Shown here: positions 8,306 through 60,904 of the stretch, piece after piece
Layout of the letters: each line of letters opens with the position of its first letter
Position numbering within the stretch: position 1 is the first letter of the stretch
NCBI GenBank assembly: GCA_963662625.1
Contig: OY759726.1
Span: 576,001 to 640,000 of the forward strand
Length of the DNA: 64,000 bases
Direction of reading: 5' to 3'
Source of the DNA: Nitrosopumilus sp.
Lineage (GTDB): Archaea > Thermoproteota > Nitrososphaeria > Nitrososphaerales > Nitrosopumilaceae
Program-made: the position numbers and the translations under genes
Notes under the pieces: generated by a model
The model's input: only the letters and a program-made list of their open reading frames with translations
What the model was told of the DNA's origin: nothing
Database searches by the model: none

Positions 8306-9259
8306 TCATAAAGCCCCCCTCATGACCGCCTCCAGGTCCCCGACGGTCTTTGCCGCGGCGATCCCCGACCGCAGCCTGACCCCGCCGCGCAATCCCCGGG
8401 TAAAGCGGATCGCCTGGTTCTTGACGTTCGCAAACTTGATGGCAAAGCCCCTGGTCAGTTCCAGGTACTCGAAGAACGCCTCCAGCCGGTCCGCGGCCGA
8501 GCGCTCCTCGTAGGAGCCCGTCTCCAGGTAGTCGTTGATCTGCTCGAAGAGGAACGGGTTCCCCATCGCGCCCCTGCCCACCATGACGTAGTCGCAGCCG
8601 GTGTATTCCAGCATCGCCCCGGCGTCCTCCGGCGTCACGATGTCCCCGTTGCCCACTATGGGGACGCTTGCCGTCTGCTTTAGCTCCTTTATCATCTTCC
8701 AGTCGGCCCTTCCGGAGTATCCCTGGCTCACGGTCCTGGGGTGCAGCGTGATCATCTGGATGCCGCGGTCCTCGGCCATTCCGGCAACGTCCATGAACAG
8801 GCGCCGGGACGCGTCGGTGATCCCCAGCCGGATCTTCAGGGTCACGGGCTTGCTGGTCGCGCCGACCAGCGCGTCGAAGATCTGCCCCGTCAGGCCCGCC
8901 TCCTGGAGGAGGGCCCCGCCCGCCATCTGCCGCGTGATGTGGGGCGCGGGGCAGCCCATGTTGTAGTCTATGATGTCGAAGAACGGCTCGACGATCCCCG
9001 CGGCCGCCTTCAGGGACTCGATGTCGGAGCCGAACAGCTGCACGGACAGCGGCCGCTCCTCCTCGGAGTACTCTAGGAACTCCCGTATCGTCCTGCTGTC
9101 CCGCCTCAGCTGCCTTTCCTTGGCAACGATGCTGTGTATGCTGGTGAACTCGGTCACCACCAGGCCCGCGCCCCGCCTCCTGCACTGGAGCCTCAGGGCA
9201 GGGTCGCTGACTCCGGCCATCGGCGCCAGGAACGCCTTGCTGGAGAATTTCGGGAGCAT
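8306..9259 (-). CDS. dusB: tRNA-dihydrouridine synthase (DusB family)
   Basis: LAPMAGVSD, VQLFGS, DYNMGCP, GNGDI, VMVGRGAMGNPFLF. Confidence 0.93.
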   Translation of the reverse strand: MLPKFSSKAFLAPMAGVSDPALRLQCRRRGAGLVVTEFTSIHSIVAKERQLRRDSRTIREFLEYSEEERPLSVQLFGSDIESLKAAAGIVEPFFDIIDYNMGCPAPHITRQMAGGALLQEAGLTGQIFDALVGATSKPVTLKIRLGITDASRRLFMDVAGMAEDRGIQMITLHPRTVSQGYSGRADWKMIKELKQTASVPIVGNGDIVTPEDAGAMLEYTGCDYVMVGRGAMGNPFLFEQINDYLETGSYEERSAADRLEAFFEYLELTRGFAIKFANVKNQAIRFTRGLRGGVRLRSGIAAAKTVGDLEAVMRGAL

Positions 9260-45398: not shown

Positions 45399-46878
45399 GT
45401 ATGAGGTCACGTATGCTGACCCTTTAATCAACAAGGCGCGATCATGCTGATCCTTATGGCGGTAGGTGCCAGTCCGTGCGTGGCAAGGCGCAGAACGACC
45501 AGGCAGCTGGAGGGCATGCTGGCACGGGCGCCCGGCGATATCGACTCACTCACGTCAAAATACAAGGAGGCGATGGCAGAAACCAGGAGGCCCCGGGCCC
45601 GCCTCGCGCACCACGGGAACGCCCACTCCCCGCCGCCGGCCAAGCCGCCGGGATGGAAGGAAGCCAGGCGGGCGAGGAGGAAGGCCCGGAAGGCGGCTCC
45701 GGAGGGGGGCGGCGGCAGGGCCCCCGCGGGGAAGCCCGGCGGGCAGCCGGGGCACCGCGGGGCGTCCCGCGGGCACGCGCCGGGGCGCACGGTGCGCCAC
45801 GGGTTCGAGGGGGGCGTCCCGCCCGGGTGCGGCCGGTGCGGCCGCGGGACCGTGCCGGGCAGGCCCGCCACGCGGGACATGCCGGGCTTTGAGGTTACCG
45901 TGACGGAGACGCGCCACGCCGTCCAGACCGCCGCGTGCCCCAAGTGCGGCAGGGGGCACGTGGCGCCAAGCGGCCTCCCTGCGCGCGGGAGCTGCGGCAG
46001 GAACGCGGTGGCCGCGGTGGCCGCGCTGCGCCACGCGGCCGTCCCGTTCGGGAAGGCGGCGGGGGCCGTGCGGGAGATCACGGGGGTGAGGATCGCGAAA
46101 CCGGCCGCGACAAGCGTGACGGGGCGCGCCCGCGGCGCGATGCGCGGGCCGTTCCGGGACATCGCGGGCCGCGCCAGGAGGCCCGAGAGGGCCGGGGCCG
46201 ACGAGACGCGCGCCAACCTGGCGGGCGAGGGCGGGCGGGCGCGGGTCACCCGGTCCGGCAGGAACGCCGTGACCGTGCACGGCCGGAGCAGGGGGCCGCG
46301 GGTGCCAGGCAGGCACGCGGGCGGGTACCGCGGGATCGTCACGTCCGGCAGGCCCTCCGCGTACGGGAGGTCCGGCCCGGGAGGGCGCCACCGGCCGTGC
46401 CGGTCCCGCGGGCTGCGGGAGCTGCGGCACGCCGCGGAGAGGAAGGGGGCGGCGCCGCGCGCCGGGGTGCTGTACCGGCAGGCGTCCGGCGCGTACGCCG
46501 GGGCGCTGGCGGCCGCCGCCCCGGGCAGGCATTCGGCTCGCACGCGCCGCGTTTCCGGGTCTGGCATGCGCAGGCTGCCGTTCGGGCACGGGGACGCCGG
46601 GGGCACCGCGCCTGCCCCCCTGGCGGGCAGGCTGCAGGCGCCGCTGCCCCGCCCGTCCGCGTTCCCGGGGCACGGGGGGCGGGGCCCACGAACAACGCCC
46701 CCGGGCGCGGCCTGCGGCACGTGGCGGTGTCCCGAAAGATAAGCGGCCAGATCAAGGGCGGGAAGCCCTGGAGGGACAGGCGGTCCCGCCCCATGACGTG
46801 CATGATCACGTGGGAGAGGCACGGGAAATCCCTGTCAGGCGAGGTATCCAAGATAGTGTAAGGGTGGTGACCTCATAC
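45399..46878 (+). mobile_element. IS66-family element
   Basis: Perfect 12-bp TIR gtatgaggtcac / gtgacctcatac; perfect 8-bp TSD TTGCAGAC at 45391-45398 and 46879-46886. Confidence 0.93.
45444..46861 (+). pseudogene. IS66 transposase (TnpC-like), heavily decayed and frameshifted near 46690
   Basis: KPGGQPGHRG, CGRCG and CPKCG zinc finger, ADET; C-terminus PTNN...LRHVAVSRKISG lies in another frame. Confidence 0.85.
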
Positions 46879-58408: not shown

Positions 58409-58595
58409 CTCAGGCCCCCTTGGCCTGCCCCGGCCACGCCCGGGGCCCCGGGCCGCCGCGGGCCGCGCCGCCTGTGGGGGGACCGGTGGGAACCATGCTC
58501 TGTCACAGTCATGCCGGGGCCGTGGTTAATCTACATATCGGCAGGCGCGCGCGGTTCCCTGGTCCGGAAAGCCGATCGCCGCTTGCCCGGGCAGG

Positions 58596-58703
58596 GCCGG
58601 CAGGGGGCGGGCGCGCCGGCGGCGCCCCCGGTGCTCCCCCGGCGCCAGGGGGGACGGCGTGCCTATCGCCGGCAGGGGGCGGGCGCGCCGGCGGCGCCCC
58701 CGG
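58596..58703. repeat. two perfect 36-bp direct repeats 36 bp apart
   Basis: gccggcagggggcgggcgcgccggcggcgcccccgg at 58596 and 58668. Confidence 0.85.
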
Positions 58704-59126
58704 GGGCGGGGGGCGCGGGCATGGCGCGGAATGCCAAGGAAGCGCGGGATCCGGGCCGCCCGGACTACGCGGGGCCGGACGGTTCGAAGGCGCGGCGGAT
58801 CGCGCGGGACGTGCCCCCGCAAACGCCGGGGCCGCGGCCGCCACGGAGTCCGCGCGGCCGGGCGCCTCGGCCGGGCGCCTCCCTGAGGCACGCGCGGCGC
58901 ATCGCGCCGCCCCCGCGCTGGCAGGCCGCGGGCAAAGATGCCCGTGCTCGGGGAGCGAGCTGCATCGCGGATCCCGCGTGCGCAACGCGCAGCCAAGCGA
59001 AACGTGCCGGACTGGGGAGGGACGAACGCCCGCGCGCATGCCCAAGCACCCCGCCATCGAACCTGGCGCGGGGCCGCATTTCGCTTGGCTGGCGCGCCTC
59101 GAAAATTAATATGGGGCAGGAGGGAG

Positions 59127-59227
59127 CGGCGGGTGTGGGACTTGAACCCACGGTGTGCTCGTTACACAATCGCCTTTCTGAGGCAATCGCTTCAGGGCGA
59201 CACCTTACCACGCTAGGTAAACCCACC
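59127..59227 (-). tRNA. intron-containing tRNA with long variable arm and G73; GAA anticodon if spliced at 37/38 (isotype ambiguous, Phe or Ser)
   Basis: GGTGGGT/ACCCGCC acceptor, TCGCC/GGCGA anticodon stem, 14-nt insert, GTGGG-TTCAAGT-CCCAC T arm; TATAAATA about 25 bp upstream. Confidence 0.85.
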
Positions 59228-59312
59228 GGGCATTACCTTATACGTACGTATATTTATACCGAGTTGCGGCGCGTATGCATGTTTTTTATATGATGCCCCA
59301 ACTTGGGAGATC

Positions 59313-59474
59313 ATGACGAGGTGGGGCAGGGACCAGACAGAGTTTACCGTAAGGCTGTCATTTGATGGGAGGAACAGCATGTCATGCAGGATACCAAAGC
59401 CGATACTGGATCTCCTGGGCGATCCAGACATGCTAACGTTCAAGCTCGAGGGCGGCAAGATCACGGTGGGCTGA
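59313..59474 (+). CDS. small AbrB/MazE-like protein (53 aa; absent from the ORF track)
   Basis: MTRWGRDQTEFTVRLSFDGRNSMSCRIPKPILDLLGDPDMLTFKLEGGKITVG; tttttata upstream. Confidence 0.7.
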   Translation: MTRWGRDQTEFTVRLSFDGRNSMSCRIPKPILDLLGDPDMLTFKLEGGKITVG

Positions 59475-59475
59475 C

Positions 59476-60904
59476 ACGAGTCCCAAAAGGGCGAGCCCCC
59501 CCCCCGAGGGGCGGGCAGGTTAAGAACAGGACGATATTCACGGGCGACAACCTCGAGATAATGCGCGGCATGGAAAACGAAAGCGTGGATCTGACATGCC
59601 CGGGTCCCCCGTTCAACTCCAAGCACAACTATGCGGCACCGATCGGCTCCAGGGCGGCTGGCGCGGAGTTCAAGGACACTTAGACGCTGAGCGGCATTGA
59701 CCAGGCATGGTGGGGCGAAATCGCGGATCAGAACGAGCCGCTGTACTAGATCATCGGCACTGCCGGAAAGGTTGGCGACGAGTCCACCATGTCATACCTG
59801 ATATACATGGCAATCAGGATTCTGGAAATGCACAGAATCCTGAAGCCCGCGGGCTCGCTGTACCTGCATTGCGATACCACGATGAGCCACTACCTGAAGC
59901 TGGCACTGGACTCAATATTCGGAAGCAAGTCGTTCCGCAACGACATTACGTGGAAGCGGACCAGCTCTCACAATGACGGCAAGAGGTACGGAAAGATTTC
60001 CGACAGGATACTGTTTTACACCAAGACTGAAAAGTGCGCCTGGAATTACGTTTGCATGCCATATTCGAGGGGGCACATGGAAAAAAACTTCAAAGACGAG
60101 GACGGGCGCGGGCGTTACGCCCACAAGGACTTGACGGCGGAGAGCCTGGCAGGTGGCGGGTATGAGTACGAATACAAGGGCCACGTCAGGATCTGGAAAA
60201 GGTCCCCGGAGTCGATGGCAGAGTTGGAAAGGCAGGGAAGGATACACATGCCAAAAAGGAGGGGCGGGGTTCCAAGGTACAAGATATATCTTGACGAGGC
60301 AAAAGGCGTCCCACTGCAGAACATCTGGACCGACATACCAAACGTCCAAGGCCAGGAAAGGCTGGGCTATCCCACGCAAAAGCCACTCGCGCTGCTGGAA
60401 CGGATCATAGATGCAAGCAGTTACACGGGCGACGTGGTGTTCGACCCGTTCTGCGGATGCGCCACGGCCTGCCTTGCGGCAGAGAGAAGGGGGAGGAGGT
60501 GGATAGGGTGCGACATATCGGAAAGGGCCTATTCGCTGATTGAGCAAAGGCTCAAAAAGGACGCCGGGATCGCCAAGTTTGTTACCGGTGCCGGGGAAGT
60601 CATACAGAGGACGGACATACCCAAAAGGAGGGGAAGGAGATCCAAGGACATCAAACACGCGCTGTACGGCACGCAGCGCGGCCACTGCAACGGCTGCAGG
60701 CACCACTACCAGTTCAAGGATCTCGAGGTTGATCATGTGGTACCCAAGGCAAGGGGCGGGCAGGATGACGACGGCAACCTCCAGCTATTGTGCGGCAACT
60801 GCAACAGGAGAAAGGGGAAGAAACTCACGATGGCCGAGCTGAAAGCGGTCCTGGACGCGGAGGGGGTGACGTTCGGCGGGGGCGCCCACGAACCGCGGAA
60901 CTGA
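59476..60904 (+). pseudogene. N4/N6 DNA methyltransferase-HNH endonuclease fusion with disrupted 5' part
   Basis: IFTGDNL; degraded catalytic motif (CPGPPF for YLDPPF); in-frame TAGs at 59681 and 59747; YPTQKP, DPFCGCAT; C-terminal CNGC...VDHVVP...NLQLLCGNCN. Confidence 0.85.

Follow-up and report, generated by a model that had tools for sequence, protein, structure and literature searches.

A 64,000-nt stretch of the genome of Nitrosopumilus sp. (NCBI GenBank assembly GCA_963662625.1, contig OY759726.1, positions 576,001 to 640,000; here called the window) carries on its minus strand, at positions 59127 to 59227, an intron-bearing tRNA gene that combines a long-armed, class-II-shaped body with the anticodon GAA. 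A sequence-only reading of the window had described a tRNA with a Ser-like body and a Phe anticodon; the observation is confirmed here, and its interpretation is partly supported and substantially extended. The main point beyond that reading is that the gene belongs to a family of tRNA genes riding in an insertion sequence (IS) element of the IS6 family. The sequences compared indicate that it is probably an intact, supernumerary tRNA gene, a passenger of the IS6-family unit, and neither the tRNA-Phe nor the tRNA-Ser of the cell.

The gene is 101 nt long, has G73 and no encoded CCA, and can be parsed as a cloverleaf in which all stems are paired. The acceptor stem (GGTGGGT/ACCCGCC) comprises seven pairs, with one U-G at 3:70, and is followed by U8; the D stem (ACCT/AGGT) closes a 9-nt loop, AGCGTGGTA, and is followed by G26; the anticodon stem (TCGCC/GGCGA) encloses a 21-nt loop in the precursor; and the T arm reads GTGGG-TTCAAGT-CCCAC, with the discriminator G at 59127. 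The variable arm, TTGTGTAACGAGCACACC (18 nt; 59152 to 59169), consists of one unpaired nucleotide, a 5-bp stem (TGTGT/GCACA) with the loop AACGA, and two further unpaired nucleotides. The universal tertiary positions (U8, A14, G18-G19, U33, a purine at 37, and the T loop TTCRANT) are present in this copy and in all 20 of the intact relatives described below. Rfam RF00005 matched the gene with 39.7 bits, its gathering score being 29 (E values of 6e-7 in a local search and 4.8e-7 for the whole genome), and ARAGORN, with introns allowed, returned tRNA-Phe(gaa) with i(37,14); the tRNA at 59127 to 59227 was missed both by ARAGORN in its default mode and by a filtered Rfam scan of the 64 kb. Contigs of runs X1 and X2, of which X1 may be the source sample, cover the gene with zero differences.

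The 5' exon (59190 to 59227; acceptor 5' strand, D arm, anticodon stem 5' strand, and C32 to G37) and the 3' exon (59127 to 59175; A38, anticodon stem 3' strand, variable arm, T arm, acceptor 3' strand, and G73) flank a 14-nt intron at position 37/38 (59176 to 59189). The central 4-bp helix of a bulge-helix-bulge is formed by C32-U33-G34-A35 (CUGA) and the UCAG of the intron; cleavage two nucleotides beyond either end of this helix would release the intron, and the 3' splice site falls in an AAA bulge. Removal of the intron leaves the loop CUGAAGA, with the anticodon GAA at 59193 to 59191, and a mature length of 87 nt. The anticodon arm, folded alone, contains the anticodon stem, the CUGA/UCAG helix, and a 3-nt bulge, with a minimum free energy (MFE) of −10.7 kcal/mol compared to −5.73 ± 2.22 for shuffled sequences (z of −2.24; 5 of 200 shuffles as good). 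The intron is identical in the copy of one relative (G310; G000 denotes the genome holding the window, other G numbers other genomes, and L numbers individual loci), and that of G016 differs at two positions, in the loop or a bulge only. A TATA box, TATAAATATA, lies 22 to 31 nt upstream of the gene, at 59258 to 59249 on the minus strand. The long arm, G73, the mature length, the intron, the TATA box, and the coordinates had all been given correctly by the sequence-only reading, and the intron placement was recovered here at the same positions, in agreement with ARAGORN.

The genome (1.86 Mb in one contig, 63.4% G+C) has a canonical 76-nt tRNA-Phe(GAA) at G000:C1:1781532-1781607 and an ordinary tRNA-Ser(GGA) with a 13-nt intron at 373041 to 373140. 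Both separate genes that the sequence-only reading proposed to look for were thus found, and the long-armed tRNA(GAA) is therefore an extra. The remaining class-II complement includes tRNA-Ser with GCU, UGA, and CGA; tRNA-Leu with CAG, UAG, GAG, and CAA; and a canonical intron-bearing Leu-UAA in the region G000:C1:563288-564402 (at ∼563300). In pairwise comparison with the host tRNAs, the best scores of the odd tRNA were 25 (Ser-GCU) and 24.5 (Leu-GAG), against a self score of 80, and its body thus does not closely match any tRNA-Ser or tRNA-Leu of the host. Its distribution is patchy, unlike that of the canonical tRNAs: tRNA-Phe(GAA) is 94 to 100% identical in G001, G002, G016, G103, and G408, and tRNA-Ile(GAU) is 97 to 100% identical in three of these five genomes and 83 to 84% identical in the other two, which are of the same genus.

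When the 101 nt were compared by BLAST to 60 relatives, long matches appeared in G016 (91% identity over 96 nt, together with fragments) and, as two degenerate copies, in G001 but nowhere else; the remaining 22 matches were short T-arm stretches. A pattern comprising the D arm and CTGA occurred at six loci in four of 185,579 species genomes, all of them Nitrosopumilaceae, and at no locus in viral contigs; the D-arm motif alone was found in 5 of 401 family genomes. A T-arm/acceptor pattern (≤1 mismatch) was found in 8 of 401 genomes of the order, three of these matches being probable tRNA-Cys genes of another family, and in 17 of 269 family genomes of ≥90% completeness, a tally that takes in some ordinary tRNAs and one unpublished genome (G229). 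Parsing yielded 20 intact members in 12 Nitrosopumilaceae genomes, where "intact" implies prior filtering for pairing and a T arm fixed by the search pattern. ARAGORN additionally calls two copies in G083 (GAU) and one in G284 (GAA) that the parser did not accept.

The 20 members read GAA (eight), GAU (five), UAU (four), or CAG (three) and therefore have A35 in common. All of them have a variable region of 15 to 20 nt with a long arm, as well as U8, A14, GG, G26, Y32, U33, R37 (G in 12 and A in 8), and A38; the anticodon loop is 7 nt long in 19 members, and the discriminator is G73 in 19 and A73 in one (L066, from G310). Compensatory changes on both sides were found in 13 of 21 stem pairs, e.g., 4:69 and 5:68 (G-C/A-U), 11:24 (C-G/U-A), and, in the anticodon stem, 27:43, 29:41, 30:40, and 31:39. 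The variable-arm stem also covaries (TGTTC/GAACA, TGTCT/GGACA, and TGCTTC/GGAGCA in relatives). The presence of the arm in every member and the lack of a bulge-helix-bulge around it exclude that it is a second intron, an outcome that the sequence-only reading had allowed for. The G000 copy differs from that of G016 at 11 and from that of G310 at 10 of 101 positions; no pair is broken, the differences lying in loops or preserving pairing, and the TCAG of the intron is intact in all three. Four intronless members (L073, L086, L099:12661, and L100:14102) read GAA in a plain 7-nt loop.

Related sequences were also seen outside the parsed set. Contigs of X2 and X3 contain a related tRNA 5' half (window 59166 to 59228) joined to a different variable arm; upstream, its flank is related to that of the window without being the same and retains a recognizable part of the ACGTACGTATAA block. 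This copy lies in a separate contig, which in X2 has deeper coverage than the window's own contigs. The three loci L069 to L071 (G470, G454, and G499, from another family of the order) share the acceptor and T arm but differ in having U73, a loop of the GCA type, and extra nucleotides inserted in the D region; ARAGORN made no call on them, and they are probably tRNA-Cys genes with a non-canonical intron.

The setting of the family is a repeated unit in which a small AbrB/MazE-like open reading frame (ORF), transcribed divergently, is followed by a shared promoter region, the tRNA, and a DDE transposase. In six loci (one each in G310 and G345 and two each in G395 and G394), a transposase of 365 to 383 amino acids (aa) starts 40 to 50 nt 3' of the tRNA on the same strand, and two further tRNAs are followed by a truncated transposase copy and a 24-aa remnant, respectively. 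The transposases of these relatives match PF13610 at 50 to 54 bits (cutoff, 27), plus rve and SWIM; the best NCBIfam match is IS6 (NF033587), at 111.9 bits and thus under the cutoff of 125, and homologues (for P0074) are named "IS6 family transposase [Nitrosopumilus ureiphilus]" in source records. The motif TTCTATATTAATTTTCGAGG, conserved after every tRNA (G016, G103, G310, G395, G394, and others), corresponds to an A/T box and the start region of the transposase gene. The small ORF (53 to 58 aa) was found by tblastn in 13 of 29 loci searched, including the window, at 39 to 62% identity. Within single genomes, the repeated unit extends over ORF, tRNA, and transposase in one case (L079/L090; 84% over 1.5 kb) and over promoter, tRNA, and transposase in another (L091/L097).

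The tRNA occupies a defined place in this unit. The transposase occurs widely, with matches at E ≤ 1e-30 in 31 of 61 Nitrosopumilus genomes, and in a census of the best transposase locus of each of 30 genomes, a tRNA or tRNA 3' part lay directly upstream of the transposase in 2; in 5, the small ORF and promoter abutted the transposase, leaving the slot empty; in 4, the slot held a gene resembling a C/D-box small RNA (sRNA); and the other 19 differed or were unclear. The C/D-box-like genes (L163, L165, L171, and L174) lie ∼60 to 110 nt upstream of the transposase start and have C, D', C', and D boxes and a terminal stem; Rfam sR1 scores 26 to 31 bits on three of the four, under its gathering score of 45. 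A promoter block, TATAAATATACGTACGTATAA, is common to tRNA-bearing and tRNA-less units of other genomes, and in their alignment (A3) G1 of the tRNA falls at the position of the transposase ATG in tRNA-less units. The shared block and the placement of G1 argue that the IS6-type unit has a defined slot, in which the tRNA is a passenger.

In the window, the tRNA is preceded by a divergent promoter region (59228 to 59312) that contains its TATA box, a T/A-rich box for the small ORF near 59283 to 59291 on the plus strand, and the same promoter block. The small ORF (53 aa; 59313 to 59474, plus strand) has homologues at the corresponding position of 12 other family loci (alignment A2) and is 60% identical to that of G395. 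Its nearest Atlas cluster is "AbrB/MazE/SpoVT" (score, 0.89), its AF2 model has a pLDDT of 79.5, and the top Foldseek matches are MazE (probability, 0.97 to 0.98; TMq, 0.64), VapB, AbrB, and SpoVT, all at E ≥ 0.16; Pfam and NCBIfam gave no match to this ORF. Three weak lines of evidence thus agree in suggesting an AbrB/MazE/SpoVT fold. On the other side, 13 nt past the tRNA 3' end, an orphan motif, CATATTAATTTTCGAGG (59097 to 59113, minus strand), corresponds to the promoter/start region of the transposase in relatives. A whole-genome tblastn search of G000 with six family transposases gave no IS6-type transposase (E < 0.2). The place of the transposase, between a liv-type permease and the tRNA, is filled by ∼680 nt (58420 to 59096) of ∼80% G+C, in which short tandem repeats rich in G+C occur and no gene could be recognized, the ORFs of this stretch having no Pfam match. 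In the window copy, the transposase has been lost; the tRNA, the small ORF, the divergent promoter between them, and the promoter of the transposase are intact. That the A/T-rich signals and the tRNA fold have outlasted this loss in a genome of 63% G+C leads us to infer that the ORF-tRNA pair is retained for its own sake.

The identity elements of the tRNA are contradictory. The archaeal Phe set is described as A73, C13-G22, G20, and G34 to A36; Ser identity, as a long arm and G73, to which G30-C40 adds a weaker element for recognition by bacterial-type and archaeal SerRS; and G73, as an antideterminant for the LeuRS of Haloferax volcanii (all from the accessible part of PMC9976931). The window tRNA has the Phe anticodon, but G73, U20, and U13-A22 take the place of A73, G20, and C13-G22, and their absence predicts poor charging by PheRS. 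The long arm and G73 agree with Ser, but a Ser anticodon (NGA or GCU) is lacking here and in all 20 family members; further, C30-G40 replaces the G30-C40 of all four host tRNA-Ser, whose arm has a stem flush with the anticodon stem, a GCAA loop, and one unpaired 3' nucleotide, features not found in the window tRNA. Unpaired variable-arm nucleotides (5'/3') number 1/2 in the window tRNA, 0/1 in host tRNA-Ser, and 1/3 in host tRNA-Leu. The T arm GTGGG/CCCAC is that of host Leu-CAG, and the 9-nt D loop is as in host tRNA-Ser, compared to 11 nt with 20a/20b in host tRNA-Leu. The Leu element A73 is missing from the window tRNA and from 19 of the 20 members, and every anticodon of the family either belongs to Leu or lies one step away from a Leu anticodon. 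The description of a Ser-like body thus holds for the D loop and G73 and goes too far for the T arm, the variable-arm geometry, and the 30-40 pair.

If the tRNA is charged, SerRS (from G73 and the long arm) or LeuRS (from the Leu-type T arm and the Leu-centered anticodons) would be likelier than PheRS. Serine, leucine, and no charging or no use in translation appear about equally plausible as outcomes, none of them being probable by itself, and charging with phenylalanine seems doubtful. The commitment that we make is to a real, extra tRNA(GAA) that is the passenger of an IS and is predicted to be spliced and to be a poor PheRS substrate. The tRNA would be transcribed from its own TATA promoter, and the splicing endonuclease would cut at the canonical position 37/38 in a slightly relaxed bulge-helix-bulge; the mature RNA would be an L-shaped molecule of the above length, with a long variable arm and the anticodon GAA. 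Expression and splicing are predicted here from the gene itself. Charging by SerRS or LeuRS would turn the decoding of UUY into low-level Phe-to-Ser or Phe-to-Leu substitution.

A second extra class-II tRNA was noted in G000 (C1:715647-715730, plus strand). Its anticodon is UAA and its discriminator G73, its 9-nt D loop is of the Ser type and its T arm of the Leu type, and it was found in 5 of 41 genomes at E ≤ 1e-6, with ≤75% identity outside G000. G020 holds a comparable pair of UAA tRNAs (at 9085 and 1533267), the G73-type one being found in 1 of 41 genomes. Were the G73-type tRNA(UAA) of G000 or G020 the normal Leu-UAA, leucylated G73 tRNAs would be implied, and this candidate was rejected, as the gene is not conserved and as an intron-bearing canonical Leu-UAA is present in all five genomes tested. 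Pattern searches for the canonical Leu-UAA gave chance-level matches only.

Several observations weigh against the reading of the gene as an intact, functional IS passenger. No terminal inverted repeats were found in L090 or L097, and the IS ends and target duplications are not defined; placement inside the IS therefore rests on the extents of the repeated units and on the slot argument. That the slot may hold a C/D-box-like RNA fits a role for any stable RNA better than a role in decoding. In the precursor, the AAA bulge on the 3' side is clean, but the 5' bulge (A36, G37, and C) is closed by just one or two intron pairs, i.e., it is relaxed; in the MFE structure of the whole 101 nt, the intron pairs with the 3' strand of the anticodon stem, and the anticodon/variable region is not a cloverleaf; and the window copy, unlike most relatives, has no oligo-T run directly after the gene. 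The intact G310 copy with A73 indicates that G73 is not obligatory. Near-perfect pairing in the family (1 nonpair in 420 cells) arises partly by construction, given the prefiltering and the fixed T arm, and the compensatory changes, rather than this figure, are the evidence for selection on the fold. Finally, decayed copies occur in G001 (two) and G408 (two) and fragments in G016, G326, G395, and G376, and the G103 copy has a 6-nt loop and one acceptor mismatch; decay on this scale indicates that selection is not strong everywhere.

Other explanations differ in which of these observations they accommodate. The gene could in principle give an ordinary tRNA-Ser(GGA) through a non-canonical cut at 34/35 or through editing, as the removal of 14 nt there would yield GGA by arithmetic. 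The sequence-only reading had already seen no bulge-helix-bulge for such a cut, and the registers, checked by hand, provide no supporting helix; moreover, the TCAG of the intron matches A35 and not G35, a normal Ser-GGA gene is present, and the intronless relatives settle the anticodon as GAA and exclude a mature GGA. Nothing requires the non-canonical splicing or editing that had been entertained, and this explanation is scarcely credible. A functionless relic of a dead IS, intact by chance, would account for the missing transposase, the frameshifted methylase nearby, and the degenerate copies common in other genomes. It is nonetheless improbable, as the flank has drifted to ∼80% G+C, whereas no damage is seen in the tRNA, in the A/T-rich promoter in front of it, in the 17-nt motif downstream, or in the 53-aa ORF, and the 10 or 11 differences from the G310 and G016 copies spare every pair. 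A correctly charged spare tRNA-Phe, supplied by an element that, like phages, carries decoders for abundant A/U-rich codons (Phe, Ile, and Leu), has in its favor the combination of GAA with G37, the base at position 37 of archaeal tRNA-Phe. In addition, GAA, GAU, UAU, and UAA read codons very common in the A/T-rich Nitrosopumilaceae, and one copy has A73. Against this stand the lack of three of four Phe determinants outside the anticodon and the use of the same tRNA body with Ile and Leu anticodons, and the comparably designed nev-tRNA-Ile(UAU) of nematodes was, according to the accessible part of PMC3333845, charged only with Leu in vitro; little credence can thus be given to a spare tRNA-Phe.

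A non-decoding RNA that serves the element, e.g., as a stable cis structure that RNase P/Z would process and that sets transcript ends, as an insulator or tuner of transposase expression, or as a ligand of the Zn-finger transposase, is unlikely but deserves more serious attention. The sub-threshold C/D-box-like genes in the slot and the loci in which it is empty suggest that it tolerates any compact structured RNA, and both the anticodon and position 37 drift within the family. The bacterial allo-tRNA(UAU) group, linked to transposable elements and toxin-antitoxin systems, is likewise judged to be probably not translating in the accessible part of PMC5389517. A mere processing signal, however, would have no need of the invariant Y32, U33, R37, and A38, of the 7-nt loop, or of the conserved tertiary positions, and the G000 tRNA has outlived its transposase and is thus not kept there for the sake of the latter. 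The tRNA might instead be a chromosomal att target of mobile elements, its copies and fragments being junction duplicates: 5'- and 3'-truncated copies flank conjugation-type and restriction-modification (R-M) genes in G016, eight copies lie in a 50-kb R-M island in G699, and tRNA genes are used by 39 of 68 thaumarchaeal integrated elements (accessible part of PMC6563490). The targets described in that part are ordinary tRNAs, though, and whole intact copies with differing anticodons recur together with promoter and transposase; the start of the transposase in tRNA-less units lies exactly at the place of the tRNA; and no tyrosine integrase was found adjoining any tRNA copy examined. We regard an att target as very improbable. 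An intact, extra tRNA carried by the IS6-family unit is the explanation that we prefer. A bolder proposal, which we put forward tentatively and consider on the whole unlikely, is that this IS family of marine ammonia-oxidizing archaea spreads its own small-RNA genes in a dedicated slot, one class of cargo being long-armed tRNAs that are charged anticodon-blind (with Ser or Leu) and read Phe, Ile, and Leu codons. If true, the mistranslating tRNA supplied by the element would be regulated by a MazE/AbrB-like repressor and would work as an addiction or stress module; alternatively, the tRNA would be an RNA partner of the transposase.

The transposases resemble the IS6 family in their PF13610 match and in the names of their homologues. 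Classical IS6 elements are ∼0.8 kb and have one gene. The archaeal transposases differ in their size and in an N-terminal SWIM/Zn-binding part, and their unit adds a divergent ORF and an RNA slot. Phage and other mobile-element tRNAs are also supernumerary and move with a selfish element, but they are normally canonical isoacceptors that match their anticodon. Engineered anticodon variants of yeast tRNA-Ser reportedly mistranslate, and natural human variants are said to do so too. These share the logic of an anticodon-blind synthetase that charges a long-armed G73 tRNA, but they are point mutants of a true tRNA-Ser. The nev-tRNAs of nematodes are class-II tRNAs with a long arm and anticodons (Gly CCC and Ile UAU) of neither Ser nor Leu; as described in the accessible part of PMC3333845, they are extra, derived from tRNA-Leu, and weakly expressed, and UAU recurs in the archaeal family. 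They differ in being eukaryotic nuclear genes, restricted to nematodes, without a tie to transposable elements and with Leu charging and decoding shown in vitro (same source). The archaeal family, with G73 in 19 of 20 members, is an analogue and not a member of the nev-tRNAs.

The allo-tRNAs of Acidobacteria and other bacteria (Mukai et al. 2017; accessible part of PMC5389517) are Ser-type extras with many different non-Ser anticodons; their UAU group is the most abundant, often has destabilizing mutations, lies near transposon-related and toxin-antitoxin genes, and is regarded there as mostly non-translating. The archaeal family resembles this group in its degenerate copies and in the adjoining transposase and antitoxin-fold small ORF. 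However, allo-tRNAs are bacterial, have 8/4 or 9/3 acceptor/T stems, and lack introns, and that part of the source describes no fixed IS slot; the archaeal family has a 7/5 arrangement and such a slot. The literature consulted describes neither long-armed tRNAs with Phe or Ile anticodons in Nitrososphaerota nor an IS with tRNA or C/D-box genes in a fixed slot, with the limit that supplementary lists (tRNAscan-SE 2.0 and PMC6563490) may hold such genes.

After nematodes and some bacteria, the archaeal family would be a third, independent case of conflict between anticodon and tRNA body, the purpose of which is still debated. What it adds is a genomic logic, namely, a fixed IS slot, beside a putative antitoxin-fold regulator, in which the tRNA is interchangeable with a C/D-box-like RNA. 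It raises the question of whether mobile elements deliberately carry mistranslating or non-decoding tRNAs, which can be tested in cultivable Nitrosopumilus, and that of which features allow SerRS, LeuRS, and PheRS to discriminate in Nitrososphaerota. For annotation, anticodon-based calls (tRNA-Phe, -Ile, or -Leu) will inflate or distort tRNA complements.

Beyond the small ORF, the window contains an N6/N4 DNA methyltransferase-HNH nuclease fusion on the plus strand in two frames (59384 to 60904, as 59384 to 59683 and 59789 to 60904). Pfam PF01555 matches at 1e-37 from profile position 28 and HNH at 1.6e-12, and PADLOC assigns a type II methyltransferase; since the N-terminal methylase motifs lie in the other frame, the gene is probably broken by a frameshift. 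DNA methylases lie within ∼1.5 kb of the tRNA in G000 and at 5 of 14 other 3-kb loci, and they are numerous in the G699 island, which is an association only. Genes of liv-type ABC transporters lie on both sides of the window locus; a shared insertion in G000 and G016 based on synteny of these genes was considered, but the orientations differ and no claim is made. Farther away, at ∼45600 to 46860 (plus strand), tblastn matches to IS66-family transposases in two pieces overlapping by 13 nt suggest a frameshifted IS66-type gene; the minus-strand ORF there has no Pfam match.

The settings of copies in other genomes vary. G699 has at least eight family tRNAs (CAG, two GAU, and five GAA by ARAGORN) at L098 to L100 (G699:C2:170001-230000), and its 50-kb island contains ∼15 R-M genes as well as a T2SSE ATPase, an IS66 transposase, and numerous large proteins that match nothing in Pfam or PADLOC; for island proteins of unassigned kind, PADLOC found nothing beyond R-M methylases. 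In G408, the two intact and two degenerate copies lie inside 3 kb, and the tRNA fragments of G016 lie beside VirB4/TraG-like, T2SSE, methylase, and ScaI genes. IS66 transposases by the G016 and G103 copies were dismissed as a common partner, being 26% identical to each other and thus taken as unrelated insertions, and a GlyRS adjoining one G083 copy was set aside as a housekeeping enzyme.

Three further observations concern the ordinary tRNAs of the host. The canonical Leu-UAA at G000:C1:563288-564402 was missed by Rfam and is called "Asn with a 1026-nt intron" by ARAGORN. A Leu-CAA with a 16-nt intron (G000:C1:1248765-1248868) is miscalled Ser-CGA by ARAGORN, A73 and the Leu-type arms revealing its identity as Leu. 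Lastly, tRNA-Val(CAC) at G000:C1:1410747-1410840 (minus strand), like its counterparts L117 (G020) and L140 (G015), is 93 to 96 nt long and has an insertion of ∼20 nt in the variable region, which is kept across three genera and is presumably a non-canonical intron.

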